DNA of 64,000 nucleotides, taken from the NCBI GenBank assembly GCA_023267375.1, contig JAHFNJ010000003.1, forward strand, positions 28,579 to 92,578. Reading direction: 5' to 3'. Positions 1-62,808 of the stretch are shown here, piece after piece. The notes under the pieces are model-generated. The model did not search any database. It had not been told where the DNA came from and worked only from the letters and a program-made list of their open reading frames with translations. Both the position numbers and the translations under genes were made by a program. The stretch is from Candidatus Nomurabacteria bacterium (GTDB lineage: Bacteria; Patescibacteriota; Minisyncoccia; Phycocordibacterales; UBA9973). How positions within the stretch are numbered: position 1 is the first letter of the stretch; every line of letters starts with the position of its first letter.

Positions 1-223
1 ATAGGAGACCAACCTGTCTCACGCACCTACCATCACTTATACTTTCGACGAAGAAAATATAAACGATTTTTCACACATTACTGTGTGGATTGGACTATAA
101 CTTCATCCTTTCGGATGTTTGACATTTAGTCTCTACGGGCATTTATTTTATGAATTTCACAGAAGAGGCAAGTAACTAATTTTACTCACCTTCAAAAATT
201 TAAATTACTAAAAAGTAATTTCG

Positions 224-298
224 TGGGAGCTACCGGGATCGAACCAGTGACCTTCAGATTATCAATCTGACGCTCTGGACCAGCTGAGCTAAACTCCC
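224..298 (-). tRNA. tRNA-Ile (anticodon GAU), discriminator A73, CCA not encoded
   Basis: Reverse complement GGGAGTTTAGCTCAGCTGGTCCAGAGCGTCAGATTGATAATCTGAAGGTCACTGGTTCGATCCCGGTAGCTCCCA folds as a canonical cloverleaf: 7-bp acceptor, D-stem GCTC/GAGC, anticodon loop TTGATAA, T-loop TTCGATC. It lies inside the 23S insertion. Confidence 0.85.
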
Positions 299-526
299 AA
301 TAACAAAGAACAAAATTTTCCTCTGTGAAACTCACAAAACTTATTTCCCTCGGTATTACCCTCGCTTGCGCGTTCGGGTTCCACCGATACTAGTCAACTT
401 CCTACACTATATTTCTATAATGCACCGCCGTGAAGAACGCCACAGCATTCTTACGGTCTAATCTCTTGTTTTAAAAACAATTGCTTTCACAATCTCTCGA
501 CGGGTTCAAACGGGTTCAGAACTCTA

Positions 527-600
527 GTTGCTAGGGGCTAGTTGCTAGGGGCTAGTGAAATTCACTAGAACCTAGGCACTAGAAACTAGAACCTAAAATG
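527..600. repeat. CTAG-rich ~75-bp repeat, copy 1, containing palindrome CTAGTGAAATTCACTAG
   Basis: Its reverse complement aligns over ~70 bp at ~80% identity with 39165-39237 (ttaggttctag…ttctagtgaattYcactagcccctagYaactagcccctag). Confidence 0.6.
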
Positions 601-917
601 CTGAACGGTTTGAACCCAGCTCGCGTATCTTTTTAATTGGCGAACAGCCAAACCCTTGGTAGCTTCTCCACCACCAGGATAAGATGAGCCGACATCGAGG
701 TGCCGAACTCCGCCGTCGCTATGAACGCTTAGGCGGAACTAGCCTGTTATCCCTAGAGTAGCTTTTATCCCTTAATCTTCCACCGCGTCTAATGCGGATG
801 GTCGGTTCACTTGGTTCTGCTTTCGCACCTGCTCGTCATGTACGACTTGCAGTCAAGCCAGCTTGTGCCCATACACTATCGGCACGGTTTCCATTCGCGC
901 CTAGCTGACCTTTAAAG

Positions 918-3092: not shown

Positions 3093-4174
3093 ATCTCTAA
3101 GAGTATTTAGCCTTGCCGGTTAGTTCCGGCGGATTCCTCCGAGCTATTCGTGTCTCGAAGTACTCAAGAACGACAACAGAAGAGTCAGTAATATTTTCAC
3201 GTACGGGGCCATCACCCTCTTTGGCGTTGCTTTCCAGCAACTTCCGTTAATATACTGTTTTGTAACTCTCCTCGAATAAACGATGTTGTCGCCTTACAAC
3301 CCCGATTCTTTTTCTTGCGAAAAACAATCGGTTTGGGCTTCTCCGCTTTCGCTCGCCGCTACTTACGGAATACAAATTTGTTTCTTTTCCTCCAGGTACT
3401 GAGATGTTTCACTTCCCTGGGTGAGCGTCACTCTCTTGCGAGAGTAATTACTGAGGTTTACTCAGTAGGGTTTCCCCATTCAGAAATCTCCGGATCAAAG
3501 GTTACTCGGCACCTCCCCGAAGCTTATCGCAGCCACGTTACGTCTTTCATCGCCTCTTAGAATCTAGGCATCCACCATATGCTCTTGTTTCCTATTAGGA
3601 AACTTAAAAACCACATATATTTCTACAGACCGCTCCGTAGAGTATATGCATACACTTTACTTTTTTTGCCCTATCCTCGATGCGTCTGAAAAGACCCTAA
3701 AAACTTCCTGAAAATACAAGAAGTAATTGCACCGGAATAGGATTTACCCAACATTATTGCTTTTAAAAGCAATAATGTTATGGCTTATTTGTCAAAGAGA
3801 CTGGCATTCGATCATTATCACTACTTACTAAAAACTTCAGCCGAGGGAACTAAAAAATCGCCTTTCGGCGACATCTCAAAACGCAAGGTTTTGATTAGTA
3901 TCGCCTCGGTTTCTGTAATTTAGAAGTAATATTCATACAGCCCAAAGAGTATATAGGAAGCGAAAAGCGATGTCAAGTTTCTCTCGGTAGTCCCACCAAA
4001 AAGCACGAATATCTGCCTGCTGGCAGATTTCTCTACTCGAAACGCCTTTCTGCGTAAGGCTTTTTGCGGGACTACCTCGCTCTGGTGAGCAGAGCCTTAT
4101 TTCTTGATTAATGACTTCGATTAAGTTATCCACCATTTTATTCACATGCACAAATCTCTCTTTTTATGGCAAGC

Positions 4175-5767: not shown

Positions 5768-6463
5768 CTAAGCTTTTGTGGCTTCTACTGGATCTTTTAC
5801 GACTCCGGTGTAGGCATATATTCTATTTTTATCTTTACTCCATGTAATCTTGTTTTCATCAAAAACAGGAGTAAGTTCGTACTTAACCTGATGTGATTCT
5901 GGTGCGTTACTGGTTCTGAGTTTTATATACTCATCAAAAAGCATTTCACCCACAAAAACCATTTCTCCTTCTTTAACTTTTTCATTGAATAACTCTTCCT
6001 TCATCTTACATGAGTTATACCATGACTCATGGTACTCTTTCTCATATTTAGTATTTATTTCATTTGCTTTTTGAAGTTGCTCGCCGGTTGGGTTGTTAGG
6101 GGTCTTTATATAACGATATGAAATGATATCCTTTACATTATTTGTCTCGCCATATACGGGGCTAGTTTGTATACGATAGCCATTTTCCATACTTGCTACA
6201 TAGAAATCAACATCGTCAGGATTAAATGTCTCAGTTTTAAATAATTCTTCCGCAAGACCATTTTCTATAAATTCTTTGATTTGTTTATCATCCCTTTCAT
6301 TACTCGCAGAAGCTCTAAGCTTCTGCCATTCTTTACTCAACTTTTCTTTTTGTTTCTGTACCGTCGTCCCATAGATAGGATTTTCTCGTAAATTCTTTAT
6401 TGTCTCTTTTACAAGCTTATCAGCTTTCTCAAAAAGATTTTCTAGTGGTGGTACCTGTTCCAT
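5768..6463 (-). CDS. Hypothetical protein
   Basis: 231-aa uninterrupted ORF, coding-like composition, no recognisable motif. Confidence 0.4.
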   Translation of the reverse strand: MEQVPPLENLFEKADKLVKETIKNLRENPIYGTTVQKQKEKLSKEWQKLRASASNERDDKQIKEFIENGLAEELFKTETFNPDDVDFYVASMENGYRIQTSPVYGETNNVKDIISYRYIKTPNNPTGEQLQKANEINTKYEKEYHESWYNSCKMKEELFNEKVKEGEMVFVGEMLFDEYIKLRTSNAPESHQVKYELTPVFDENKITWSKDKNRIYAYTGVVKDPVEATKA

Positions 6464-6520: not shown

Positions 6521-8158
6521 CTAATGCCCATAAAACCCTCGCGCAACCGCATCTGGGAGCATCATGAGTGTCGCGCCTTTTTCTTGGCAGAGTTTGATTA
6601 TCATCTCATCATTACGTGAACCAGAAGTTGAAAGGATCGTGGTGACACCAGCATTGATGAGCGTTTCTGGACCATCAGGAAATGGGAAGAAGCTATCGCT
6701 GTAGGCGACCGCACCAGAGAGATCGAGTTCACCCTCTCCTAAAAGTGTAGCAGCATTTTTTGCGCGAGAAATTGCGAGCAGTGCTGCCCCGACGCGGTCC
6801 TGCTGTCCTACACCATTACCGTACAAGCGATTATTTTTCACAATTGAAATAGTGTTACTCGTACTTGTGGAGCCAATTGCCCACGCTAAAATAATATCTT
6901 TTTTTATTGCATCAGATACCGTCGCGCCATTTGCAGAAAATTGAGAATCAGAAAAATCGATTACGAACGTATAGTTTGGTTGCTGTAAAAATCCACCACG
7001 CACATAGCGCACGCGCGTTGCCGTATCCAAACTTTTTTCACCAAGCATCGCCAAATCTTTATTTTTCAAAAGCCGGCACTTCCCGCCTTTGCGTGCCAGT
7101 ATTTCAATCGCTTCGTTCGTAAACGACGGCGCAATAATTGTGTCGAGCAATCGTTTGCCTGCCCCCTCCCCCATCCGCCATTCACGGAGCACTGTTGCTT
7201 CACTCGCGCCGATTTCAAAATTTGCCATGAACGATCCGCCGAAGATTGCTTGCAGATCTCCTTCGGTGACTTTTTTAATTACCTCTTCTGCATTCTCTCC
7301 ATATGCAGCACCGCAGGCATTACCATGCTTCACCGCGATACCAAGCTTTGGCACAGATTTAAAATTACGTTCAAAACCAGCCGCCATGTGGGTGATACTT
7401 TGAAGCATCCGATCAAGATCACAAAAATTGTTATATGAAGGTTCCGTACCTTCCACGAGTTCGAATTTATCTAAAGAAAGCGGGTCAGTATTTTTTTCTG
7501 CATACAAGCCAGCCGGTGTCTGCCACGCATTCTCACCATATTTACACGATGCTACTTTTTCTCCAAAAATCGCAGCGTAAGTTCCCTTCGCGTGATACGC
7601 CCCTGATGCGAATGCGTATTTTGAAACGGTGTACTCTGCTTTCGCGGCGAGCATGGTTATAAATGCAGCAGCATCTTGCTCGCCATTTTTCAGCCACTCG
7701 ATTACTTTTTGACGATCGTTTGCATCGCACACAACAATGCGTCGTCCTTTTGCAGCGGAGCGAATCATCGTCGGTCCGCCAATGTCAGTATTTTCAATAA
7801 CTGATTCTGGTGTGGCATCGGCTTTCGCAATTTCTTTTTCAAGCGGATAAAAATCACAGCAGAGCAAATCGATGCGTGGCATATTGAGAGCAGCAAGCTC
7901 TGCTTCATCTTCCGGAATCGGACGTGCCAAAAGTGCAGCGTGGAATTCACGCGAGAGCGTAACCACACGGTGTCCTAAAATAGGCTTCCCCACGCGGTCA
8001 GCTAAATCAGTAACTGGTACGCCATTTTCTTTGAGCACTTTTGCAGTGCCGGTCGAAGACATAATATCCCAACCAAGCGCTACTAATTCTTTGGCAAAAT
8101 CGACGATACCTTCTTTGTTGGAAACAGATAGAAATGCGGTTTTTTTCGCGATATTCAT
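6521..8158 (-). CDS. purH: Bifunctional AICAR transformylase / IMP cyclohydrolase
   Basis: 545 aa; N-terminal MGS-like domain ('AFLSVSNKEGIVDFAKELVALGWDIMSSTGTAKVL'), AICARFT core ('GIAVKHGNACGAAYG'), typical length. Confidence 0.8.
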   Translation of the reverse strand: MNIAKKTAFLSVSNKEGIVDFAKELVALGWDIMSSTGTAKVLKENGVPVTDLADRVGKPILGHRVVTLSREFHAALLARPIPEDEAELAALNMPRIDLLCCDFYPLEKEIAKADATPESVIENTDIGGPTMIRSAAKGRRIVVCDANDRQKVIEWLKNGEQDAAAFITMLAAKAEYTVSKYAFASGAYHAKGTYAAIFGEKVASCKYGENAWQTPAGLYAEKNTDPLSLDKFELVEGTEPSYNNFCDLDRMLQSITHMAAGFERNFKSVPKLGIAVKHGNACGAAYGENAEEVIKKVTEGDLQAIFGGSFMANFEIGASEATVLREWRMGEGAGKRLLDTIIAPSFTNEAIEILARKGGKCRLLKNKDLAMLGEKSLDTATRVRYVRGGFLQQPNYTFVIDFSDSQFSANGATVSDAIKKDIILAWAIGSTSTSNTISIVKNNRLYGNGVGQQDRVGAALLAISRAKNAATLLGEGELDLSGAVAYSDSFFPFPDGPETLINAGVTTILSTSGSRNDEMIIKLCQEKGATLMMLPDAVARGFYGH

Positions 8159-8343: not shown

Positions 8344-8730
8344 TTATTTAAGTGTGACCTTTCCTCCCGCCTCTTCAATCTTCTTCTTCGCATCTTCTGC
8401 TTCAGCTTTCTTCATACCTGTTTTAAGCATAGAAGGAGCATTGTCAACGAGATCCTTTGCTTCCTTAAGACCCAAACCAAGCATTTCCTTAACTACTTTC
8501 ATCACGCCGATTTTCTGATCGCCAGATGAAGTAAGTTCAACGTCAAAACTGTCTTTCTCTTCAGCTGCAGGACCAGCTGCAGGACCAGCGACAGCAACTG
8601 CTTGTGCTGATACGCCGAATTTTACTTCAAGCACTTTTACAAGTTCGTGCAAATCAAGCACAGACATTCCTTCAATCTTATCAACGAGTTCCTTGAATTT
8701 TGCAGGAACTTCTACTTTTGTTTCTTCCAT
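8344..8730 (-). CDS. rplL: 50S ribosomal protein L7/L12
   Basis: 128 aa, Ala/Pro-rich hinge plus C-terminal domain '[15 protein letters not shown]…[21 protein letters not shown]'. Confidence 0.9.
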
Positions 8731-8846
8731 AATTTTTTAGTATGTTAGTAAATTAGTAAGTTAGTATGCTAGATGAATGCATTTTGCATTTTCTAGATTA
8801 CTAGTTTACCAGCTTACTAAATTACTTTGATTTAATAATTTGTAAT

Positions 8847-9335
8847 TTACACTCCCTTATCCGCAATTGCTTTCAAACCAACAACCAATCCTTGAATTGG
8901 CGAGTTGATAAGATTGACGAACATTCCGCGAAGCGTATGCATCGATGGAATCATTGCAATAGCAATCATTTCATCTTTTGCTTTATATGCTCCGTCAAAA
9001 ATACCGCCGACAATTGCAATTGCATCTTTGTGTTCCTTTTGGAACGCGTACACTTCACGTGCTGGAGCAAGTAAATCTGCGCCATAAGCAACAGCAACTT
9101 CACCATCAAGCGAAGGCATTTCACCACTAACTCCTTTTGTTGCGAGAGCGCGCTTCATGAGCGTCTTCTTAGCAACACGCAAACCTACTCCTCCTTCGCG
9201 CAATTTTGAACGAAGTGCCATAGTGTTTGCTACTGAAAGTCCGTGAAAATTTACAAAGACTGCTGAGTTCGCACCGGCAAAAAGGGTGTCGAGCTCTTTT
9301 ACTGTTTCTGCCTTTTTCTGTTTAGTAACTGGCAT
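8847..9335 (-). CDS. rplJ: 50S ribosomal protein L10
   Basis: 162 aa, immediately upstream of rplL in the conserved order; L10-like sequence. Confidence 0.85.
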   Translation of the reverse strand: MPVTKQKKAETVKELDTLFAGANSAVFVNFHGLSVANTMALRSKLREGGVGLRVAKKTLMKRALATKGVSGEMPSLDGEVAVAYGADLLAPAREVYAFQKEHKDAIAIVGGIFDGAYKAKDEMIAIAMIPSMHTLRGMFVNLINSPIQGLVVGLKAIADKGV

Positions 9336-19297: not shown

Positions 19298-19714
19298 ATG
19301 ACTTATGAAATAAATACTCAGGATGCCATCAGTGAGACGCTCGACGGCGAAACAATTGTTATAAACCTAAAGAGCGGAAATTACTACAGTTTAAATGAAA
19401 CTGGTACGCTCGTATGGACCTACATTGTCGAAAAGTACAGCACCGAATCCATGGCCGCAACCTTGGCAAGCCACTATGGCGCAGACACAAGTACTGTTGA
19501 AAAAGCTATTGCAGACTTTATCGAGACCTTACAAAAGGATTCGCTTATTCAGGAAACAACCCAAACAAATAACTCTCCAATACCTTCACCAACAACAGAG
19601 AAAAAATTGTTCGTTGCTCCAAAAATCGAAAAATACGAAGATATGCAGGAAATGATTATGGCTGACCCCGTACACGATGTTGATGAAATGGGCTGGCCTA
19701 ATTTGAAAAAGTAA
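19298..19714 (+). CDS. PqqD-family (RiPP-recognition-element-like) protein with ~65-aa C-terminal extension
   Basis: 'LDGETIVINLKSGNYYSLNETGTLVWTYIVEKYSTESMAATLASHYGADTSTVEKAIADFIETLQKDSLIQE' fits PqqD/RRE pattern; tail ends '…DVDEMGWPNLKK'. Confidence 0.7.
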   Translation: MTYEINTQDAISETLDGETIVINLKSGNYYSLNETGTLVWTYIVEKYSTESMAATLASHYGADTSTVEKAIADFIETLQKDSLIQETTQTNNSPIPSPTTEKKLFVAPKIEKYEDMQEMIMADPVHDVDEMGWPNLKK

Positions 19715-38958: not shown

Positions 38959-39159
38959 TTATCGAGCAACGTACGGGAGAAGTCCCATGAATCGTGAACG
39001 CTTGATAGCGAGCGCGAGTTTACGCTGATTCTTCGCAGTAATACCCGTGCGTCGGCGTGACATGATGCGGGCATTCGGCGTCAAAAATCGCTTGAGGATT
39101 TCCAAATCCTTGTAATCGATATGCTTTATATTATTTGCTGAAAAGTAATCTTGTTTCAT
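38959..39159 (-). CDS. rpsR: 30S ribosomal protein S18
   Basis: 66 aa; '[29 protein letters not shown]'. Confidence 0.85.
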
Positions 39160-39164
39160 ACTTA

Positions 39165-39237
39165 GGTTCTAGGTTCTAGGTTCTAGGTTCTAGTGAATTC
39201 CACTAGCTCCCTAGTAACTAGCCCCTAGTTAACTGTT
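39165..39237. repeat. CTAG-rich repeat, copy 2 (tandem ttctagg ×4 then palindrome CTAGTGAATTCCACTAG then cccctag units)
   Basis: Aligns with the reverse complement of 527-600; sits in the ssb-rpsR intergenic spacer. Confidence 0.6.
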
Positions 39238-39688
39238 AAAATGGAATATCTTCTGGGTTTGACTCTTCTTCAGGATATTCAATCGTATCGAGCTCTCCGA
39301 TATCTGCTTTGGGAGCTTTTGAATCCCCCATTCCAGATGGCGCTCGGCTTCCCGAACCTTCCATGCGCGGACCAAATTGCATACGGTCAGCTACAATTTC
39401 AGTGCGATACTTCTTTGAACCATCCTTATCATCCCAGCTTCGTGTCTGAATGCGGCCTTCAATCAAAACTGAGCTCCCCTTTTTCAAATATTGCGCGGCA
39501 ACTTCTGCTTGGCGTCCGAACATCACAATATTGTGATAATCTGCCTGCTCTTTCTTTGCACCGCTTTGGTCTTTCCAGACCCGATTGGTCGCTACAGAAA
39601 ATGTTGTTACCTTAATACCCGATGGAAGCGCGCGCATCTCAGGGTCGCGAGTAAGATTTCCGATAATGAATGCTTTGTTAAGATACAT
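39236..39688 (-). CDS. ssb: Single-stranded DNA-binding protein
   Basis: 150 aa; OB fold; Gly-rich linker; acidic tail ending 'DIPF'. Confidence 0.9.
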   Translation of the reverse strand: MYLNKAFIIGNLTRDPEMRALPSGIKVTTFSVATNRVWKDQSGAKKEQADYHNIVMFGRQAEVAAQYLKKGSSVLIEGRIQTRSWDDKDGSKKYRTEIVADRMQFGPRMEGSGSRAPSGMGDSKAPKADIGELDTIEYPEEESNPEDIPF

Positions 39689-41249: not shown

Positions 41250-41424
41250 CATAAAAGAACAGTACCACAAAAACGTTCATAACTTAATAGAATAAGTAGC
41301 AGGCTCAGCTCCTTGGAGCGAATCTAGGGCTTTTGAAAAGCCTTGCACAGGCTAGCGAGCCGAGCAGAGAAAATTTCCAGGAGGAAATTATTCGTGCTTT
41401 TCAAAAGCTCTAGCTGAGCGTATT

Positions 41425-45989: not shown

Positions 45990-47312
45990 TTAATTTAACT
46001 TCTCTTTGATGTAGCCAACCAATTCATTCATTTGGACTCGTTCCTGTTCGCCCGTATCACGGTCACGAATAGTTACTGTGTCTAGCAGTTCAGGTTTTTC
46101 ACCAAGAGTATCGAAGTCGATAACGATACACCATGGCGTGCCGATTTCATCCTGACGGCGATAGCGCTTGCCGATATTGCCGTTGTCGTCCCACATCACA
46201 CGACCGAATTCTTGTTTGAGTGTCGTATAGACTTCGCGAGCTTTCGCTATGAGTTCTGGTTTATTTTTAAGAAGCGGAGACACCGCGCAAATCACCGGTG
46301 CAATGCTTGGCTTGAATTTCAGATATGAGCGCACTTCTCCACCCTTCTCGTCTTCTGCGTATGCAGAGAGGAGTAATGCGAGCACCAAACGATCAACACC
46401 GATCGAAGGCTCAATCACATGTGGTGTTATTTTTTCTTTTGCTTCTTCGTCTTGATATTCAACGTTGTGGTTTGATAAGTCAAAATTGCCGCGATACACC
46501 AAACCGAATAGTTCTTTCTGTCCAAATGGATACTCAAACTCGAAATCAATCGTGCGTTTTGAGTAGTGAGCGCGATCAGCTTCAGCAATTTCCACTTCAT
46601 GAACAAGCGAAGTATCCAAACCAAGCTCACTGACAAATTCGTTCAAATTTTTCTGCCATAAGGTAAACGCATCTTGCCAGTCACTTTCCTTTACAAAATA
46701 TTCCACTTCCATCTGCTCAAATTCACGAACACGGAAAATAAAATCACGCGGGGTTATTTCATTGCGGAATGCTTTACCAATCTGACCGATACCGAATGGC
46801 AACTTTGGATGAAACGAATCAACAACATTTTTGAAGTTGGTGAAAATACCCTGTGCTGTTTCAGGGCGAAGATATACAGTTGAGGCAGAATCTTCCACGG
46901 CACCAATTTTGGTTGAGAACATCATGTTGAACTGACGCGCTTCGCCGAGCGCACCGTCACAGTCAGGACATTTTGTAGGATCTTCAAGCTGGTCGGCGCG
47001 AAAGCGATGCTTGCACTTACTGCATTCAACTAACGGATCCGAAAATCCAGCCACGTGGCCAGAAGCCTTCCAGACCTCGCTGTTCATCAAAATTGCAGCG
47101 TCTACCTCATACATATCATCACGGCTCGCTACAAACTTTTTGCGCCACGCGTCCTTAATGTTGTTTTTGAGGGCCACGCCAAGCGGGCCGTAGTCGTAGG
47201 TTCCGCCCAGTCCCCCATATATCTCAGAGCCCGGAAATACAAAACCACGTCGTTTTGACAACGACACTATTTTGTCCATTAATTCATTATCTTCCTGTGT
47301 TTTTTTAGCCAT
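45990..47312 (-). CDS. glyQS: Glycyl-tRNA synthetase (dimeric class II)
   Basis: 440 aa; 'RRGFVFPGSEIYGGLGGTYDYGPLGVALKNNI'. Confidence 0.85.
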   Translation of the reverse strand: MAKKTQEDNELMDKIVSLSKRRGFVFPGSEIYGGLGGTYDYGPLGVALKNNIKDAWRKKFVASRDDMYEVDAAILMNSEVWKASGHVAGFSDPLVECSKCKHRFRADQLEDPTKCPDCDGALGEARQFNMMFSTKIGAVEDSASTVYLRPETAQGIFTNFKNVVDSFHPKLPFGIGQIGKAFRNEITPRDFIFRVREFEQMEVEYFVKESDWQDAFTLWQKNLNEFVSELGLDTSLVHEVEIAEADRAHYSKRTIDFEFEYPFGQKELFGLVYRGNFDLSNHNVEYQDEEAKEKITPHVIEPSIGVDRLVLALLLSAYAEDEKGGEVRSYLKFKPSIAPVICAVSPLLKNKPELIAKAREVYTTLKQEFGRVMWDDNGNIGKRYRRQDEIGTPWCIVIDFDTLGEKPELLDTVTIRDRDTGEQERVQMNELVGYIKEKLN

Positions 47313-47334: not shown

Positions 47335-49278
47335 TTATCTGACCACTCGTTCAGCGTTCCCAAGAAATGCTGGATCATTTACCAAAAATGTATTGAGTGG
47401 TTTCTTTGAAAAAGAAAATACAGTATTAGTAAAAGTATCTGTTCCGGTCACCGATGTTTCATTTAAGAGAAGTGGGACACTCCCTACTTGGCTATCAGAT
47501 GGAGTAAGTCCAACCTGAAACGATACTTCTCGGGCCGCACCAGAAAAACCAGTGCCTTTCTCTACGGTACCAATCTTCCAATCGATAGTATTGGTTGAAG
47601 GATCATAACTTATATTTTCATTTTTGGGAAATACCATATTCTTCCACTTTACCACAGGTGGCAAAGTAGCCCGAGCATCGGCTTGTACAATACGATTCGC
47701 GGAGTTTGTTACTGTCCAGGTAATAGTATACGTAGATTCTTGTTCGGCTTTTGGTGGCAATGGACCTGTATTGGTGAATGGCCCAGTTGATCGTGAAGCA
47801 TGCGCGACAAGTTGAAAATCAGAATTCATTTTCACCACCTTATGTTCAAAGTTATTTACTTCTTGAACCGTACTACCACCGCTTGGCTCTTGCCCCTTGA
47901 TACTGACATCAATAACGATCTGGGGATTCACTAATGCAATGTTTGAAGAACCAATAAGTGGTAGAGACATGAGAGAAAAATCAACAGTACCAGTCTCCCC
48001 AGGCTCAATACTCGCAAATGAAGGGATTGTGTTACGGTCCCAAATAATTTCGTTGGTAAGAGAATTGTAAAATCCACTCGAGGTCTGCACTCCGGCTTTA
48101 TCAAACGCATTTCCAGATAGTGTTGCATGGATTTCTGCATTCATAATTTGCGTTGATAAATTATTAGACCAAGAAATCTTTCCCCGAATTGGTGATTGCG
48201 CAGAAGCAACTGTCTCCGCTTGGCTATTATCATTGATTGCAAGCTTTGCTTCAAGAAACGGTTTAGTGATCGAAATTGTCTGAAGCACTGAATTATAGAC
48301 AGTTGAAACAATAGGATTGCTGTTAACACTCCCTTCACCTGCATAGAAGTGGAACGATTTGTCTTCCCCACTATCAGCAATAATCGAACCAGTGATCGTA
48401 ATATTCTTTTCCACACCAGGCTCAAGATTACCAAGATCCCACACATTATTTCCGGTGATTGGTCGTGGATCTGATCTTTTAAAAACGAATCCTGGAGGAT
48501 ATTCTCCTTCAAGCACAATCCCCTGAGCAGGCTTCCCTGCATTCAGCGTCGCTTTAATTTTAAGTGTGATATCCTGATTTGCGTTTGCCGTTGTTGGAGC
48601 ATCGACAGAAAGTGTTAGTGGCGCAGAATTAATATTTACCTTATATGCTGTCTCTTTTATAAAAATCGCATTCGAGCCCTTGAGTCGATATTCGAGCGTG
48701 GCTTTGATATCTCGGGTACTTCCCTGTTCACCATAGAGTGTTACCTTCTCAACATCAGTCACCATCTGACCTGCCGCAATGGTGCCGAGCGATTTTCGAA
48801 TACGTACCGTATCAGCAACCACGTTTGGGTCACCACCTCCAGATTTTGGATATTCAATTAATAAGTCAGCACGATCAAGGGCAACGGCATTTTGATTTTT
48901 TATTTCTATTTGTAGTGGTAATTCATCGCCGCCATTCGTAAAAGCATTGCCTAAAATTTTTATATCAATATTTTGCGTTGAAACAGTATTTGTCCCACCC
49001 AAAAACATGTACGCAGCAAACGCCATTGCTGCAACAAAAAAAACGACAGCAACGACAAAAAATTTTTTAAATATAGAAGTTTTTGGCATGTAGTTCATAA
49101 ATTGTGGATGCTCGGTTGATTTCTCTTCCGTCCATGAAGCATTTGATCCGAAAGCAACACGATGTAGAACCCCTGGTCTTTTCCGAGGTACTTTTCGCTC
49201 ATCACTTGAATAGAGTTTCTGTTCAAGTTCCTCTATTGCTTCTGGTTCATGGTCTTCTCGTAAATCGAGTGTTGACAT
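47335..49278 (-). CDS. Large membrane-anchored extracytoplasmic hypothetical protein
   Basis: 647 aa; single N-terminal TM 'FFVVAVVFFVAAMAFAAYMFL'; beta-rich remainder. Confidence 0.5.
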   Translation of the reverse strand: MSTLDLREDHEPEAIEELEQKLYSSDERKVPRKRPGVLHRVAFGSNASWTEEKSTEHPQFMNYMPKTSIFKKFFVVAVVFFVAAMAFAAYMFLGGTNTVSTQNIDIKILGNAFTNGGDELPLQIEIKNQNAVALDRADLLIEYPKSGGGDPNVVADTVRIRKSLGTIAAGQMVTDVEKVTLYGEQGSTRDIKATLEYRLKGSNAIFIKETAYKVNINSAPLTLSVDAPTTANANQDITLKIKATLNAGKPAQGIVLEGEYPPGFVFKRSDPRPITGNNVWDLGNLEPGVEKNITITGSIIADSGEDKSFHFYAGEGSVNSNPIVSTVYNSVLQTISITKPFLEAKLAINDNSQAETVASAQSPIRGKISWSNNLSTQIMNAEIHATLSGNAFDKAGVQTSSGFYNSLTNEIIWDRNTIPSFASIEPGETGTVDFSLMSLPLIGSSNIALVNPQIVIDVSIKGQEPSGGSTVQEVNNFEHKVVKMNSDFQLVAHASRSTGPFTNTGPLPPKAEQESTYTITWTVTNSANRIVQADARATLPPVVKWKNMVFPKNENISYDPSTNTIDWKIGTVEKGTGFSGAAREVSFQVGLTPSDSQVGSVPLLLNETSVTGTDTFTNTVFSFSKKPLNTFLVNDPAFLGNAERVVR

Positions 49279-54942: not shown

Positions 54943-57900
54943 CTACTTTTCAATTGAAATCTCTGCCACACCAGCCTCAACAGAAATATTTTTTGCCGTA
55001 ACCGTTTTCTTGAGTTCGTCGCCAAACGTCGCCGCTAGTTCTTTGTATGAATCTGGGAGCTTAATATTGATGCTGTCGCTTGGCATTAAACCTTTCTGTT
55101 TACGCAAATCTTGAATAGCGCGCACAAGTTCACGGAAATCCCCTTCTTTTTTGAGCTCTGGAGTCATCTCGGGATCAAGTAGGACTTGGTCTTTCAGCGA
55201 ATCACTCTCCACGACTTCTTTCACATTGAGTTCATCTTTTAAAACATCTTTGAAATACGTCTCGAGTTTTATATTTGGCACAGTAACCTTCTGGAGTGGC
55301 TGACGAACAGGAATCCCAGCTTTTTGCCTTTCTTTTAGCCCCATAGATGCGAAGTCCCGAACATTACTCATTTGAGTAATTAATTCTTTTTCCACCTTCC
55401 CACCTTTAGGCCAACTGGAAAGATGCACACTTTCTGTATCTGATTCTGCCCGCAGTTTCAGCCATATATCTTCCGCGGCAAACGGCGCAGCAGGAGCCAT
55501 GATCTGCGCTACTGTTTTAAGCACAAAATAAAGTGTCTGTTTTGCGTCAGCATCCCCTTCTTTGATACGGTCACGTGAACGACGTAAGTACCAAGTAGAA
55601 AGATCATCGATAAAATCTCGAAGTGCACGCACTGGTTCCATAAGTTTGTAACCGTCCAAGCTCTCAGTGGTAAGCGCTACAAGCTGATTAAGTCGAGCAA
55701 GAATCCATTGATCGAGAACATTGCTAGTTTCTAGGTTATAGTTGCTAGTTTCTAGTGAAGGGTCACGATAGAGTTCATAAAATGCCAACACATTGTAGAG
55801 CAAACCGAATACCTGGCGATGCAATTCCATCACTGTTTTCTCATCGTAATTTTTTGAATCCCCTGGCTGGTTCACCGAGTACATCCAAAGGCGCAGTGTA
55901 TCAACACCAAATTTTTCAATCTGGAAAAATGGTTCGACAATGTTACCGATTGACTTCGACATTTTCTTGCCATCTTTATCGAGTAAGTGTCCTAAGCAAA
56001 TCGCATTCTTAAATGGCGTACCGCATTCCATAAGCGTACCGACAGCAAGCAGTGTATAGAACCATCCGCGGGTTTGATCAATAGCTTCAGAAATGAAATC
56101 TGCTGGGTAGCCATGTGATTTTTTGAGCAATCCACTCTTCGGCTGAAAGGTATCTTTGTTTTCAAACGGATAGTGATCTTGGGCAAACGGCATAGAACCA
56201 GAATCAAACCACACATCCATCACTTCTTTTACACGACGAAATTCTTTGCCGTCTTTTTCAAGCACCACTTCATCAATATATGGCCGATGCGGATCAAGCT
56301 CGTAGTTCTCATTGTGCGGAAGTGGGACGAATGGAACATCATAAAAAACAGCATTTTCAATGTAATGAAAATCTTTCTTTCCCCGGATCATATCGAGTGC
56401 CTGCTCAGCACTATACCCATGAGCACCAACGACCATGAGCCAAGCAGGTCCGCCATGGGTCACAATCAAAATATTTTTATTGCTGTATTTTTGTTCTAGC
56501 TCATATAGCAATTCACTTACGCGTTTACGAACATCGCTATATGATTCGCCTCCTGGAAGAACTGCAGAAAAATTATCCGCCGTCTTTGGAAATTTATCAT
56601 GATACTCTTTCCATGTCGTGCCACTAAACGTACCGACACGCATCTCGTGGAGCCGAGCATCCGTACTCACTGATTCCTCAGGCAAGCCAAGAACACCTCG
56701 TACGATATCTGTTGTTTCTTTCGTGCGTATAAACGGTGAGGCAACAATCAAATCTATTTTTTTGTTTTTCAATAACTCTGCCGCTTCTTGTACCTGCGAT
56801 TTTCCATGGTCAGTCAAATGATCGTTTACTGCATCTTGTTTATCGCTGATCAAACCTTGCAAATTATGCTCTGATTCACCGTGACGCATCACGATATAGT
56901 TATTCCCGCTTTTCTTTGTATATTTTTTGAGTGTTTCAAATGAATCAACAACAATGCGCTCGCCATCAGCGTTCTGCCACACTGGCATCGGTGTTCCCCA
57001 GTACCGCTCACGAGAAATCGCCCAGTCTTTCACCTCGCGAATCCACTCGCCGAAACGCCCTTCTTTGATATGAGATGGCTCCCAATTTATCTTTTCATTT
57101 TCAGCGACGAGATCATCCCGAAGCGCCGACATTTTGATGTACCACGAATCGCGTGCGTAGTAGATGAGCGGCGTCTTACAGCGCCAGCAATGTGGATAGC
57201 TGTGCGTGTATTGTTCTTTCGCAAAAAAGTTTCCGTGCTCTTGGAGATATTTCAACACCTCAACAGAAGTCTTGAGACCATTGTCTTCCCTATCTTTTGC
57301 TGGCATTCCCTCGAGACTACCCGTGCCTTTTATAAAATGTCCGGATTCATCAACGAGATGAAATTTCGGCAACCCAACTTTCGAACCAAGCTCGAAGTCG
57401 TCCTGACCGTACATCACGGCTGTGTGCACGATGCCGGTACCATCTTCGGTGTTTACGAAATCTGCCGCGTATACTTTGTATGCGTTTTGTAACTTATCGT
57501 CACCCTTATCCAATTCAGAGAGATATGGATAGAGTGGTTCATATTCCGTGCCACTAAGTTCTTTACCGAAATATCTACCTGATACTTCGTATAAGGTTTT
57601 TTCTGCTCCAGGTTTTGGAGATCCACTAAGAGTCCTTCCAAAAACACCATCACTATTTATTAACTCTAAACCAAAAATTTTATTGACCAAATCCCATGCC
57701 AGGATATAATTTTCTACACCTGAATTGTTTGTAACTTTTACTTTTACATAGTCGATTTTCTCACCCACAGCCAAAGCAACATTCCCAGGCAAGGTCCAAG
57801 GTGTTGTGGTCCATGCAAGAAAATAAGTATTCTCATTTCCGACTACTTTAAATTTCGCGATAACTGACAAATCTTTTACATCTGCATAGCCCTGCGCGAG

Positions 57901-58467
57901 TTCGTGCGACGAAAGGCCAGTTCCACAGCGCGGACACCATGGCACGACTTTGTAATCTTTGTAGAGCAGCCCCCTTTTATCGACATGCGCAAAGACATTC
58001 CAAAGCGATTCAACATAGTTTGTATCAAACGTGTAGTATGCAGATTTTTTATCTACCCAGTAACCGATACGGTCCGTAAATTTTTCCCACTCACCGATAT
58101 ATTCAAAAACAGAATCCTTACATTCTTTATTGAATTGAGCGATACCATACTGTTCGATTTCTTTTTTTGATTTGAGCCCAAGCTTTTTTTCAATCTGAAG
58201 TTCTACTGGTAATCCGTGAGTGTCCCACCCCGCACGTCGTCGTACGTGAAAACCCTGCATCGTTTTATAACGAGGAATGACATCTTTGAATGCGCGTGCT
58301 TCCAAGTGGTGGAGTGCTGGTTTGGCATTGGCTGTTGGTGGACCTTCATAGAACACAAATTCGTCATTGCCAGCATTTCTTTCAACCGACTTTTGAAATA
58401 TATTTTCTTTCTGCCAAAACTCCAAAACCGCTTCTTCTCGAAGCGCTGCTGCTGATTTTTCATTCAT
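54943..58467 (-). CDS. ileS: Isoleucyl-tRNA synthetase with an embedded histidine-phosphatase (PGAM-family) domain
   Basis: '…WDTHGLPVE…WAISRERYWGTPMP… [NYIVMRHGESEHN … ILIVTHGGP] …DVWFDSGSMP…KMSKSIGN…'. Start set at Met 'MNEKS' just after the T-box terminator U-run. Confidence 0.85.
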   Translation of the reverse strand: MNEKSAAALREEAVLEFWQKENIFQKSVERNAGNDEFVFYEGPPTANAKPALHHLEARAFKDVIPRYKTMQGFHVRRRAGWDTHGLPVELQIEKKLGLKSKKEIEQYGIAQFNKECKDSVFEYIGEWEKFTDRIGYWVDKKSAYYTFDTNYVESLWNVFAHVDKRGLLYKDYKVVPWCPRCGTGLSSHELAQGYADVKDLSVIAKFKVVGNENTYFLAWTTTPWTLPGNVALAVGEKIDYVKVKVTNNSGVENYILAWDLVNKIFGLELINSDGVFGRTLSGSPKPGAEKTLYEVSGRYFGKELSGTEYEPLYPYLSELDKGDDKLQNAYKVYAADFVNTEDGTGIVHTAVMYGQDDFELGSKVGLPKFHLVDESGHFIKGTGSLEGMPAKDREDNGLKTSVEVLKYLQEHGNFFAKEQYTHSYPHCWRCKTPLIYYARDSWYIKMSALRDDLVAENEKINWEPSHIKEGRFGEWIREVKDWAISRERYWGTPMPVWQNADGERIVVDSFETLKKYTKKSGNNYIVMRHGESEHNLQGLISDKQDAVNDHLTDHGKSQVQEAAELLKNKKIDLIVASPFIRTKETTDIVRGVLGLPEESVSTDARLHEMRVGTFSGTTWKEYHDKFPKTADNFSAVLPGGESYSDVRKRVSELLYELEQKYSNKNILIVTHGGPAWLMVVGAHGYSAEQALDMIRGKKDFHYIENAVFYDVPFVPLPHNENYELDPHRPYIDEVVLEKDGKEFRRVKEVMDVWFDSGSMPFAQDHYPFENKDTFQPKSGLLKKSHGYPADFISEAIDQTRGWFYTLLAVGTLMECGTPFKNAICLGHLLDKDGKKMSKSIGNIVEPFFQIEKFGVDTLRLWMYSVNQPGDSKNYDEKTVMELHRQVFGLLYNVLAFYELYRDPSLETSNYNLETSNVLDQWILARLNQLVALTTESLDGYKLMEPVRALRDFIDDLSTWYLRRSRDRIKEGDADAKQTLYFVLKTVAQIMAPAAPFAAEDIWLKLRAESDTESVHLSSWPKGGKVEKELITQMSNVRDFASMGLKERQKAGIPVRQPLQKVTVPNIKLETYFKDVLKDELNVKEVVESDSLKDQVLLDPEMTPELKKEGDFRELVRAIQDLRKQKGLMPSDSINIKLPDSYKELAATFGDELKKTVTAKNISVEAGVAEISIEK
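56341..56904 (-). other. Inserted histidine-phosphatase domain within ileS (residues ~543-730)
   Basis: Canonical branch-1 histidine phosphatase signatures 'VMRHGESEHN' and 'VTHGG', ~190 aa, between the IleRS WGTP region and the DVWFDSGS/KMSKS region. Confidence 0.7.
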
Positions 58468-58482
58468 ATTTTTTTCTTGCAT

Positions 58483-58760
58483 AAAAAAAACTCGTCCTCG
58501 CGTAACAATTAATGAATAATTGCAATGCAAGGACGAGTTTCTGCTCGTGGTACCACCTTACTTACTTCTCTTTACCGCTGTATCGGGCTTACCCGCTAGG
58601 ATCTACTCGCCAAATAGCTTTCTGCCTAGAGCCTGCCTGCCAGCAGGCAGGCTCGGAGGTGATTACTCTCCTTAAGCTGTAGTTCCATCATACGAATCAT
58701 CCTAAAAAAAAGCAACCCCATCCGATAAAGGATGGGGCGCAATACTGTTTACTGTGGGAT
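58483..58760 (-). promoter_or_regulatory. T-box riboswitch leader of ileS
   Basis: RNA strand contains T-box consensus 'AAGGUGGUACCACGAG' then terminator 'ACUCGUCCUUGCAUUGC…GCGAGGACGAGU' + U8; UGGU bulge predicts discriminator A, matching the tRNA-Ile in this window. Confidence 0.6.
58703..58738 (-). terminator. Terminator of gene 58766..59455
   Basis: ccccatccgataaaggatgggg plus U-run on the minus strand. Confidence 0.65.
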
Positions 58761-61322: not shown

Positions 61323-62246
61323 TCATATCCCCGCTTTCTCATCATTACTATTATTTTTTATGCGTACATCTCCCAATTGAGCACTTTGAAGTATTTTATT
61401 TCCTTCAATAAAACACTCTTTGTACTTGAGCGTTTTCTCATCAACAACTCCAGGAAAATCAGCATCCTGCAAAATATCACTGTGCCTCCTAAAAGCGCTT
61501 GAAACGAGCGGCGCCACACCAAAGACAAGGAGTGAAATTTCTTTATTTCTGAGATCAAACACTTTTCTTAATAGTGCACAAATGATTGTACGCGGATGCG
61601 ACACCTCACTCTTATTCGATATTTCACTGAAAAATCGCTCCGGATGAATGAAGTACCGTTCAGTCAAAAAATCAGTGAGTTGCTTAAGTGCATCAAAGAA
61701 TTCACCCGTAAAATGCTTCAGAAATTCACTCTTATCGTAAAACTGCCCCGTCGCATCAAGGGGAATCATTGCTCCACGCGAATCTGCAGTTTCAGTGATA
61801 AGCATCTTGGTTTTTAATTCCCCTGTCCCTGGATTATGATCATCAGTATCAATATATCCAAGTTCCTGTAACTTTTGGGAAATTTTCTTGTCGACAGGCA
61901 CAGCTAGTTCATGATACGTACTATGCTGTTCATACTCTTTACGACTAATCATAAAGAAATACCCCGTCCGCTCAGTCATGCTGAATTTCTCAAAAAGAGC
62001 ATTATACTCAGGTAGCGTGCATTCTCTTTTGAAAAACTGATGGAAATATATTCCAAAAAGACGCAGTAGTACATAGCGTTGCACAGAAGACAGACGCAAG
62101 AGATACGTATCACCTTCAACAATCAGGACTCCTGGATAACACTCAATTAATACACCGACGAAAATATCCAATAATTTTTCCGCAGTGAGATCTTTGTGTA
62201 CCGCAATAGATAGTGGTACTTTGATAACAAATTCATAGACTCTCAT
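61323..62246 (-). CDS. Hypothetical protein
   Basis: 307-aa clean ORF, no motif recognised. Confidence 0.4.
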   Translation of the reverse strand: MRVYEFVIKVPLSIAVHKDLTAEKLLDIFVGVLIECYPGVLIVEGDTYLLRLSSVQRYVLLRLFGIYFHQFFKRECTLPEYNALFEKFSMTERTGYFFMISRKEYEQHSTYHELAVPVDKKISQKLQELGYIDTDDHNPGTGELKTKMLITETADSRGAMIPLDATGQFYDKSEFLKHFTGEFFDALKQLTDFLTERYFIHPERFFSEISNKSEVSHPRTIICALLRKVFDLRNKEISLLVFGVAPLVSSAFRRHSDILQDADFPGVVDEKTLKYKECFIEGNKILQSAQLGDVRIKNNSNDEKAGI

Positions 62247-62342: not shown

Positions 62343-62382
62343 TCTACTTAGAACATTAGAAATTAGTTATTAGACATTTCTC

Positions 62383-62808
62383 CTACTTCTTCCCTGTCGA
62401 TCCCTCCCTTCCTTCCCCGCGGACTGTCTCCGTAAGATCGACGACTTCTTCAATATCGCAATGTTCAAATTTTTGGATAATCATCTGCGCAACCTTGTGT
62501 CCTTTCGGTAAAGTGTACGGCACAGTTGAAAGATTAATAAGATTCATGATGATCTCTCCGCGATAGCCAGCATCAATGACACCACCCATTGTTTTTAAAC
62601 CATGATTGAATGAGATGCTCGATTTATCCCAAATGAGTCCAACGTGTCCTTCAGGAATCTCCACCGCAATACCTGTGTGCACCCGCGCTTGTGCGCCTGG
62701 TGCAAAAACAACGTCTTCCGCCGCATAAAAATCCATCCCCGCATCGCCCGGATGTCCGTGCGTTGGCAATTTTGCATCGCTGTTTATTTTTTTAACTTTG
62801 AGTTTCAT
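62383..62808 (-). CDS. dut: dUTP diphosphatase
   Basis: 141 aa; 'PGDAGMDFYA…', 'GVIDAGYRGEI…' dUTPase motifs. Confidence 0.85.
   Translation of the reverse strand: MKLKVKKINSDAKLPTHGHPGDAGMDFYAAEDVVFAPGAQARVHTGIAVEIPEGHVGLIWDKSSISFNHGLKTMGGVIDAGYRGEIIMNLINLSTVPYTLPKGHKVAQMIIQKFEHCDIEEVVDLTETVRGEGREGSTGKK

Follow-up and report, generated by a model that had tools for sequence, protein, structure and literature searches.

A CTAG-heptad foldback element in a Paceibacteria genome as a putative relative, without a reading frame, of 23S rRNA intervening-sequence cassettes

The 64,000-nt stretch of Candidatus Nomurabacteria DNA analysed here (contig JAHFNJ010000003.1; hereafter, the window) carries a foldback element of about 72 nt in two full copies, at 524-596 and 39162-39232. 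The two lie in opposite orientation, and in each the 17-nt palindrome CTAGTGAAWTYCACTAG is flanked on both sides by an arm of about five CTAG units, one every 7 nt. Copy 1 sits in an insertion in the 23S rRNA gene and copy 2 in the spacer between ssb and rpsR, the two locations that an earlier note on this DNA had correctly given for the repeat. To these we add the strict 7-nt periodicity of the arms, a half copy in the isoleucyl-tRNA synthetase (IleRS) gene, an outer inverted repeat around copy 1 and the place of its host insertion at 23S position 2593, none of which the note had described. The copies and their cores are as follows.

524..596, plus strand: copy 1 of the CTAG-heptad foldback element (tandem-repeat arrays; family model 71 bits, E 3e-20)
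552..568, no strand assigned: palindromic core of copy 1, 17 nt, CTAGTGAAATTCACTAG, an exact match on both strands
39162..39232, minus strand: copy 2, filling the 76-nt ssb-rpsR spacer (family model 74 bits)
39190..39206, no strand assigned: palindromic core of copy 2, CTAGTGAATTCCACTAG
55724..55760, minus strand: half copy, comprising half a core and an AACCTAG-type arm, in frame in the IleRS open reading frame (ORF) 54943-58530 (repeat search, nhmmer)

The repeat is real and far above chance. In the window the palindrome CTAGTGAAWTYCACTAG is found only at 552-568 and 39190-39206, against an expectation of 0.06 matches (mean of 100 dinucleotide-preserving shuffles). The reverse complement of 527-600 and the segment 39165-39237 agree in 60 of 80 columns of a global alignment (75%), or at about 87% over about 69 columns, counted by eye, when end gaps are left out, values in keeping with the roughly 80% over some 70 bp reported earlier. 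On the plus strand, copy 1 reads CTAGTTG CTAGGGG CTAGTTG CTAGGGG, then CTAGTGAAATTCACTAG, then AACCTAG GCACTAG AAACTAG AACCTAA, and the Tandem Repeats Finder (TRF) program delimits its arms as period 7/14 arrays at 524-556 and 563-595; both arms of the element are strict 7-nt CTAG arrays by the same program, with AACCTAG/CTAGAAC as the unit. Nine CTAGs fall within 521-607, matching the earlier count of more than eight, and eight within 39160-39240. The note had set this block against a general depletion of CTAG, which holds by one yardstick and fails by another: the 93 CTAGs of the whole window compare with 237 expected from base composition, but with 91 under a trinucleotide (Markov) expectation.

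Beyond the window, the core pattern GGTTCTAGTGAANNNCACTAGC had no match in 185,579 GTDB representative genomes and six matches, on five contigs (L123-L127), in JGI metagenomes; these contigs have a GC content of 33-38%, against 42.6% for the window. A family hidden Markov model (HMM) built from eight copies, the two in the window and the six from metagenomes, recovered diverged members on L162 (E 2e-7, directly upstream of ssb), on L127 at 7561-7622 (L127b; E 6e-6) and on L173 (E 1.7e-4), and L127b and a canonical copy lie on either side of one gene on the same contig. The termini TTAGG...CCTAA are inverted in six of the eight copies. Together with the two full copies and the half copy in the window, these members bear out the earlier proposal of a dispersed non-coding family. 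A phage origin was considered and set aside: the shorter core TTCTAGTGAANNNCACTAG had no match in IMG/VR viral contigs, and the generic pattern of four successive CTAGNNN units, of which those contigs hold at least 120 stretches, is not specific to the family.

The spacer copies share one layout. In copy 2, read on the minus strand, the ssb stop codon TAA is followed by CAGTTAA and a G-rich stretch of three CTAG units; after the core come a run of four AACCTAG units that closes with CTAA, the dinucleotide GT and the rpsR ATG (39157-39159). All seven spacer copies (copy 2 and the six from metagenomes) lie between same-strand genes in this orientation, in the order upstream stop, 0-7 nt, G-rich arm (units TTAGGGA, CTAGGGA, CTAGGGG, TTAGGTG and similar), 17-nt palindrome, four AACCTAG-type units ending in CTAA, 1-4 nt and ATG. 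When near relatives of the family are counted too, the G-poor arm adjoins the ATG in 10 of 10 spacer copies, at a distance of 1-5 nt, and no Shine-Dalgarno (SD) sequence precedes the downstream ATG in spacer copies. The neighbouring genes are ssb and rpsR in the window, rplF and rplR as well as a site upstream of rpsN on L123, proS and mreB on L124, and genes for a solute-binding protein and a small membrane protein, with the element between them, on L127. The element has stop codons in all frames. A consensus scan of copy 2 matched no promoter and no terminator; TAGAAC/CCTAAG, a promoter candidate ahead of the ATG, was rejected, its position 6 not being the T of a -10 box. The element touches the stop codon on one side and the ATG on the other, as any insertion into so short a spacer would.

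The SSB encoded beside copy 2 finds its best matches, at 63-77% identity, in metagenome-assembled genomes (MAGs) of Paceibacteria (Nomurabacteria, Zambryskibacteria and 'Paceibacterota') within the Candidate Phyla Radiation (CPR), or Patescibacteria. We compared the ssb-rpsR spacer across 80 such relatives (L128-L207; SSB 63-77% identical). A heptad-CTAG cluster occupies this spacer in 0 of the 80, and the single cluster found, upstream of ssb, is that of L162. The spacers have a median length of about 24 nt and are AT-rich, with no SD motif seen in the short ones, and close relatives have spacers such as taaATTAAATTatg. From this pattern of presence and absence at roughly genus level we infer that the CTAG element was inserted.

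It is not the only kind of insertion at this site. About 25 of the 80 spacers are longer than 60 nt, and most of these hold other inserted repeats, several of them heptad- or octad-armed. Foldbacks of tandem 7- or 8-nt units in the relatives include TAGAGCC units in L173 and AGATTTG/TAAAATC units around a GAATTC centre in L175, with further cases in L142, L199 and L196, and ACGAAT octad foldbacks lie in the ssb-rpsR spacer of L145 and L160. The window has a foldback of this kind elsewhere.

8737..8819, minus strand: octad foldback of TTAGTAAG-type units (period 8), parsed as five per arm, with the near-palindromic centre ATGCATTTTGCAT

Flanked by ORFs 8847-9335 and 8344-8730, with 6 nt separating the end of its G-poor arm from the ATG of the latter, it is a different member of the same architectural class as the CTAG element. 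On a broader scale, TRF finds 54 period-7/8 arrays in 589 kb of CPR DNA, about half of them no more than 15 nt away from the ATG of an ORF of 60 codons or more, and in a tally of ATG-proximal units, read in mRNA sense, C outnumbers G by about 3:1.

Other repeats were noted alongside these. The ssb-rpsR spacer of the relatives houses at least three further families of 110-190-nt inserts (L133/L147/L159/L178, L163/L194/L139/L204 and L144/L172/L162/L202), one of which has the termini CCCGT...ACGGG and directly abuts the rpsR ATG. Among relatives whose spacer exceeds 60 nt, 13 of 26 end ssb with TAG by our tally, compared with 9 of 54 among those with short spacers, and inserted elements may often supply the stop codon of the upstream gene. 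In the window, 4.3 TTAGAAA heptads occupy 62348-62378, just downstream of the stop of ORF 62383-62808 and before ORF 61323-62246. Another dispersed intergenic repeat of about 100 nt, present at 3990-4100 and 41300-41410 in inverted orientation, is 76% identical over 153 aligned columns (...AAAAGCACGAATA..CCT.CTGG...TTTCTCT.CTCG...AAGGCTTTT...TTCGCTC...GAGC.GAGCCT), and one of its copies lies just upstream of the 23S gene.

The comparison that bears most directly on the nature of the CTAG element comes from the ssb-rpsR spacer of L201, which contains a gene. On its 5' side the spacer reads TAG GGAATAG GTTATAG GGGGTAG GGAATAG T and then the ATG of a 119-aa ORF; on its 3' side the stop codon TAA of that ORF is followed by ACTATAA CCTACAA CCTATTC CCTATAA CCTACCC and the rpsR ATG. 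The product belongs to PF05635, the '23S rRNA-intervening sequence protein' (IVP; E 5e-37), with a weaker match to bAvd. PF05635 is very large: 7,515 of the 8,000 candidate proteins scored from a word-indexed search reached E<=1e-15, and their source names are those of CPR groups. We read nine distinct IVP cassettes (L201, L222, L223, L210, L212, L226, L230, L232 and L237). All nine lie between same-strand housekeeping genes, four of them in the ssb-rpsR spacer and the others upstream of recA, between the genes for an ABC ATPase and its permease, between those encoding a TPP enzyme and an aldehyde dehydrogenase, downstream of a yqeY-like gene and downstream of an ABC ATPase gene. In each, NAG-N4 units (period 7, or 9 in L230) make up a 5' arm that runs directly up to the IVP ATG, and in most a complementary, C-rich 3' arm stops 0-5 nt short of the next gene's ATG, the exceptions being L232, with a direct rather than an inverted repeat, and L237, with no 3' array. 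The upstream stop codon is TAG in seven of the nine and is often the first unit of the arm.

This layout is the same as that of the ORF-less CTAG element, and the diverged member L127b brings the two closer still. By our own count its 5' arm, TAGGGAATAGGTTGTAGTTTGTAG, matches that of the L222 cassette, TAGGGAATAGGTTGCAGGTTGTAG, at all but 2 of 24 positions, and its centre, GTAGTGAAATAC followed by TAAAACC, is similar to the opening codons and the stop codon of the IVP ORF in L201 (TAGTATGAATAC...TAAAC), which is what internal deletion of the ORF would leave. Since the ORF-bearing members of the class carry PF05635, we read the CTAG family, with moderate confidence, as a probable ORF-less miniature of a cassette of the intervening-sequence (IVS) type, placed within a wider class of heptad-armed insertions that fill same-strand spacers in Paceibacteria. 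The element is most likely selfish DNA, and the class is apparently undescribed: the literature searched yielded no account of heptad-armed foldbacks, or of IVP cassettes, in the operon spacers of CPR bacteria.

The likeness to known 23S IVSs that carry an S23p/IVP ORF (the type found in Coxiella, Leptospira, Brucella and Xanthomonas) lies in the complementary stem-loop termini and in the tandem heptamers of the arm. The Coxiella IVS has a 28-bp terminal stem that is cut by RNase III, and three to four GACAGAT heptamers just upstream of its S23p ORF (PMC4990558). Like those IVSs, which are viewed as selfish, the CTAG family has a copy inside a 23S gene, and its related CPR cassettes carry PF05635. 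Unlike them, it has no ORF and lies mostly in mRNA spacers rather than in 23S helices 9, 25 or 45; its sole rRNA copy is antisense within an intron at L2593, and its arms are interrupted where the IVS has a continuous 28-bp stem.

That rRNA copy deserves description in its own right, and the features around it are these.

24..604, minus strand: 581-nt insertion in the 23S rRNA gene at L2593, host of copy 1 (Rfam large-subunit (LSU) rRNA alignment)
71..226, minus strand: group-I-intron-like core within the L2593 insertion (41.5 bits, below the gathering score of 50)
502..519, minus strand: outer inverted-repeat arm CUGAACCCGUUUGAACCC, partner of 601-617, with which it pairs in the minimum-free-energy fold
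601..617, minus strand: outer inverted-repeat arm GGGUUCAAACCGUUCAG, formed by the last 13 nt of the 23S 5' exon and the first 4 nt of the insertion

Rfam places the 23S rRNA gene on the minus strand of the window. Aligned to the bacterial LSU model, it matches cleanly as far as window position 605, where ...GGGUUCAAACCGU ends at U605, equivalent to E. coli U2593, and the 23S sequence takes up again at window position 23 with CGUGAGACAGG, CGUGAGACAGGUUGGUC... Group I introns are known at L2593 in the 23S genes of CPR bacteria (PMC11270868). Copy 1 begins 8 nt into the insertion and has its G-rich arm first on the plus strand, which makes it antisense to the 23S rRNA/intron transcript. At 524-596 it lies outside the Intron_gpI match at 71-226, and the element itself does not match the catalytic core; copy 1 is a passenger close to the intron's 5' end. 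It is bracketed by a 17/18-nt inverted repeat (601-617 and 502-519), whose arm at 502-519 is followed by GUCGAGAGA, a sequence resembling the ligated exon junction GUCGUGAGA, and coincides with a period-10 repeat ACGGGTTCAA at 500-518 (TRF). With this outer repeat, copy 1 folds as a 116-nt RNA hairpin of -54.6 kcal/mol (z -9.7). Taken as a candidate P1, the outer helix pairs the splice-site U605 with A and not with the canonical G; an alternative guide sequence, GCGGU, lies about 170 nt further into the insertion. The DNA of relatives analysed here contains no other 23S copy with which to compare the intron, the metagenome contigs breaking off at the rRNA.

Two further observations concern this gene. 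The L2593 insertion also contains a tRNA-Ile(GAU) gene at 223-298 on the minus strand, and thus on the strand of the rRNA, directly upstream of the group-I-intron-like core; it is full-scoring at 68 bits and confirmed by ARAGORN, and a tRNA gene within an rRNA intron is unusual. A second 23S insertion, of 206 nt, lies at about 1265-1470 on the minus strand, at Rfam model position ~1953 (GGUCCUA before the insertion and GAGCGAAAUUCC after it), roughly E. coli 1917-1931, and its similarity to group I introns is weak, at 14.7 bits.

The half copy shows the element in a third kind of site. Delimited at 55725-55759 in the repeat search, it is 83-86% identical over 35 nt to the full copies and scores E 1.4e-4 against the family HMM with nhmmer. 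Its translation, SLETSNYNLETSN, falls in a variable loop of IleRS that immediately precedes the conserved LDQWIL motif, and the sole unit that would give an in-frame stop reads CTAT (ATAG) instead of CTAG. Homologues of this IleRS have heptad-compatible peptides in the same loop, for example SLEPSAYRLKPTN and VESRKSNVESSN. The idea that the element splits genes, raised because IleRS homologues seemed to be split at this loop, was dropped: the apparent splits on L208 and L209 are plain frameshifts with no insert, and both contigs have frameshifts across many genes. In the same loop, the relative L209 carries at 5935-5990 a different palindromic insert, CCCCTCTCC..GGAGAGGGG, read in frame as PHPFAPLLDKERGWGEV, and the loop may be a recurrent landing site for palindromic elements. 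Separately, the IleRS ORF 54943-58530 (minus strand) holds an inserted histidine-phosphatase-like segment (YIVMRHGESEHN...); gene calls on L208 and L209 place PF00300 His_Phos_1 between tRNA-synt_1 pieces, and this insertion seems conserved in the clade.

With mRNA spacers, an rRNA intron and a coding loop all occupied, the element would, on the IVS-miniature reading, spread as DNA. It would be co-transcribed with its host operon or intron and fold into a long interrupted hairpin that, by analogy with rRNA IVSs, might be trimmed by RNase III, and in mRNA spacers selection may tolerate only the orientation that leaves a G-poor, unpaired AACCUAG leader before the start codon. Such a leader would matter because the organism makes little use of SD sequences. 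RNA folding, the check proposed in the earlier note, does give a long interrupted hairpin on either strand, with energies of -27 to -32 kcal/mol and z of -3 to -7 (-28 to -32 kcal/mol and z -3.6 to -6.9 for the spacer copies, with -28.3 kcal/mol and z -3.6 for copy 2), made of 4-bp CUAG helices separated by 3x3 internal loops; in the spacer copies the fold leaves the one or two AACCUAG units nearest the AUG unpaired.

Several points weigh against this account. No PF05635 ORF is present in the 72-nt element, and no IVP gene in the 64-kb window or on L123-L127; as the related cassettes carry PF05635 and the CTAG element has no ORF, we file it as an ORF-less derivative and not as a full member. 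The hairpin, with its 4-bp helices and 3x3 loops, is a poor classical RNase III substrate, and covariation lends no support to it or to the 'RNA structural module' suggested earlier (RNAalifold term +0.39, with nearly all pairs invariant). A target-site duplication, which the note had proposed to look for, did not emerge: inspection of the eight copies revealed no consistent direct repeat around them. No transposase, RAYT or other mobilising enzyme was seen with the element, in a search that was not exhaustive, and IVP is not known to mobilise DNA. Insertion is deduced from comparisons at or above genus level, the core pattern is missing from the GTDB representatives, and the strict orientation and ATG-adjacent place could point to a host function.

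That last point leads to the alternative that survives best, though we consider it unlikely: that the element is an intercistronic translation or processing signal used by the host, with the AACCUAG heptads acting as an SD-independent ribosome-loading or regulatory site or, alternatively, with the hairpin being cleaved so that the internal cistron becomes a near-leaderless mRNA. It would explain why all ten spacer copies, several of them in ribosomal-protein operons, face one way at 1-5 nt from an ATG that has no SD sequence, and why the last one or two heptads are left unpaired before the AUG. The genomic setting is also compatible with it. Inspection of 50 upstream regions in the window showed few SD-like motifs at ribosome-binding-site (RBS) distance, and many genes have a TATAAT box 6-8 nt before the ATG (for example 47335-49278, 45990-47312 and 19298-19714), which suggests that leaderless or very short-leader mRNAs may be frequent in this Paceibacterium. 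A parallel is offered by the TAACTGA heptamer repeats of marine Beggiatoaceae, Cyanobacteria and Bacteroidetes, which form forward arrays a few nucleotides upstream of start codons in place of a recognisable RBS, are present in ribosomal-protein operons, are patchily distributed across the phylogeny and, in Beggiatoaceae, have been proposed as an SD-independent ribosome-loading or regulatory site (PMC4679880). Those arrays have another unit sequence, however, and are plain direct repeats of two to six or more units (PMC4679880), with neither the second inverted arm and palindromic core nor the link to an IVP ORF that mark the CTAG family. Against a host signal stands the absence of the element from the same spacer in the 80 relatives, which manage with AT-rich spacers of 2-40 nt, and abutment on the ATG is expected of any insertion into spacers this short. 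The antisense copy in the rRNA intron and the coding copy in IleRS likewise favour insertion at the DNA level over a purely translational signal.

A less probable suggestion, compatible with the IVS-miniature reading and in line with the protein-binding array that the note had listed, is that the element is a binding array, operator or decoy, for a ring-shaped RNA- or DNA-binding protein that reads XAG every 7 nt, with the pentameric IVP as a candidate. The arms do follow an XAG-N4 rule, each arm of the CTAG family having four to five XAG at 7-nt steps. In the IVP cassettes the longest NAG chain of the 5' arm is five units in seven of nine (six at period 7, and L230 at period 9), and chains this long seldom arise when the same arm is shuffled (50 of 5000 shuffles for L201, 56 of 5000 for L222 and 1 of 5000 for an arm of copy 2). 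Among solved structures, the PF05635 homologues 2GSC and 2RLD both contain five chains per entry, and a homopentameric toroid is the form described for S23p (PMC4990558). Five units per arm and a pentameric protein would make a suggestive match. The geometry recalls the HutP site of the Bacillus subtilis hut terminator, and TRAP repeats: the HutP hexamer binds two sets of three XAG with a 7-nt period that flank a linker or stem of 12-17 nt (PMC2425495), and in the CTAG element two XAG-N4 arrays flank a 17-nt core. The likeness is geometric only, as the HutP site has 3+3 units where the element has about 5+5, and hut is a single locus whereas the element is dispersed. Several findings count against such an array: the window has no IVP gene, unit numbers vary (nine in L226 and four in L237), other foldbacks of the class, such as those of ACGAAT octads or ATTTTCA heptads, have no XAG, and CTAG is palindromic, so that XAG on both arms comes free.

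By analogy with TRAP and HutP, we also put forward, as a tentative and improbable idea in its own right, that the heptad arms are candidate operators for a pentameric IVP, an Avd-like four-helix bundle, each subunit of which would read one XAG. If so, the IVP cassettes in the operon spacers of CPR bacteria would regulate themselves as RNA- or DNA-binding modules, and the ORF-less CTAG elements would be trans-acting sites or decoys with five XAG on both arms. The processing or translation of the housekeeping genes downstream (rpsR, rplR, rpsN and mreB) would then be coupled to IVP, and the very large and unexplained PF05635 family would gain a first molecular function.

It is very doubtful that the element is a classical miniature inverted-repeat transposable element (MITE) or repetitive extragenic palindromic (REP) element mobilised by a transposase or RAYT, the type of element named in the earlier note. 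The MITE-like part of that suggestion stands in so far as the element has inverted termini (TTAGG...CCTAA), multiple copies in intergenic sites and a presence/absence pattern among relatives, and the in-frame gene remnant adds to the resemblance. Rickettsia palindromic elements (RPEs) and MITEs such as Correia, BOX and ERIC are short, palindromic and dispersed, and occur in spacers, within RNA genes and in frame in protein genes; the IleRS half copy parallels the in-frame RPE copies, a likeness drawn by description only; RPEs are 100-150 bp long and are not built of tandem heptads. Cyanobacterial short tandemly repeated repetitive (STRR) sequences are heptamer tandem arrays in non-coding DNA, with units such as CCCCAGT, and are set apart by description, as the CTAG family has other units, a foldback and a palindromic core. 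What speaks against a MITE is that neither a target-site duplication nor a cognate transposase was found, that no related insertion sequence or RAYT turned up (RAYT was not searched for genome-wide) and that the ORF-bearing relatives encode IVP, the IVS protein, in place of a transposase. The REP-like label did not hold: the element is 72 nt long with tandem-repeat arms, and CTAG is its repeated unit and not a terminal tag, whereas REPs have a 20-40-nt GTAG/CGTC-tagged format (PMC3733652). A full-text literature search found no paper on MITE- or REP-type repeats in CPR/Patescibacteria.

Finally, chance low complexity or replication slippage producing simple-sequence repeats with no common descent is highly implausible, for although generic CTAG-heptad arrays are common, as in the viral contigs, the same 17-nt core, asymmetric arms and unit numbers recur across contigs that differ in GC content and flanking genes, and the palindrome would be expected only 0.06 times in the window.

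CPR/Patescibacteria genomes are usually called streamlined, yet their very short operon spacers house diverse heptad-armed foldback insertions. The reading of the CTAG family as an ORF-less IVS-type miniature ties this class to the abundant and unexplained '23S rRNA IVS protein' family, and it comes with a rule that can be tested, in which arms of about five XAG units are set against a protein of five subunits. A further question that it poses is how internal cistrons are translated with little use of SD sequences when a 70-nt hairpin precedes an essential gene. With stop codons in all frames, abutment on start codons and absorption into coding loops, such elements will affect gene calling and spacer-based comparisons in CPR MAGs.

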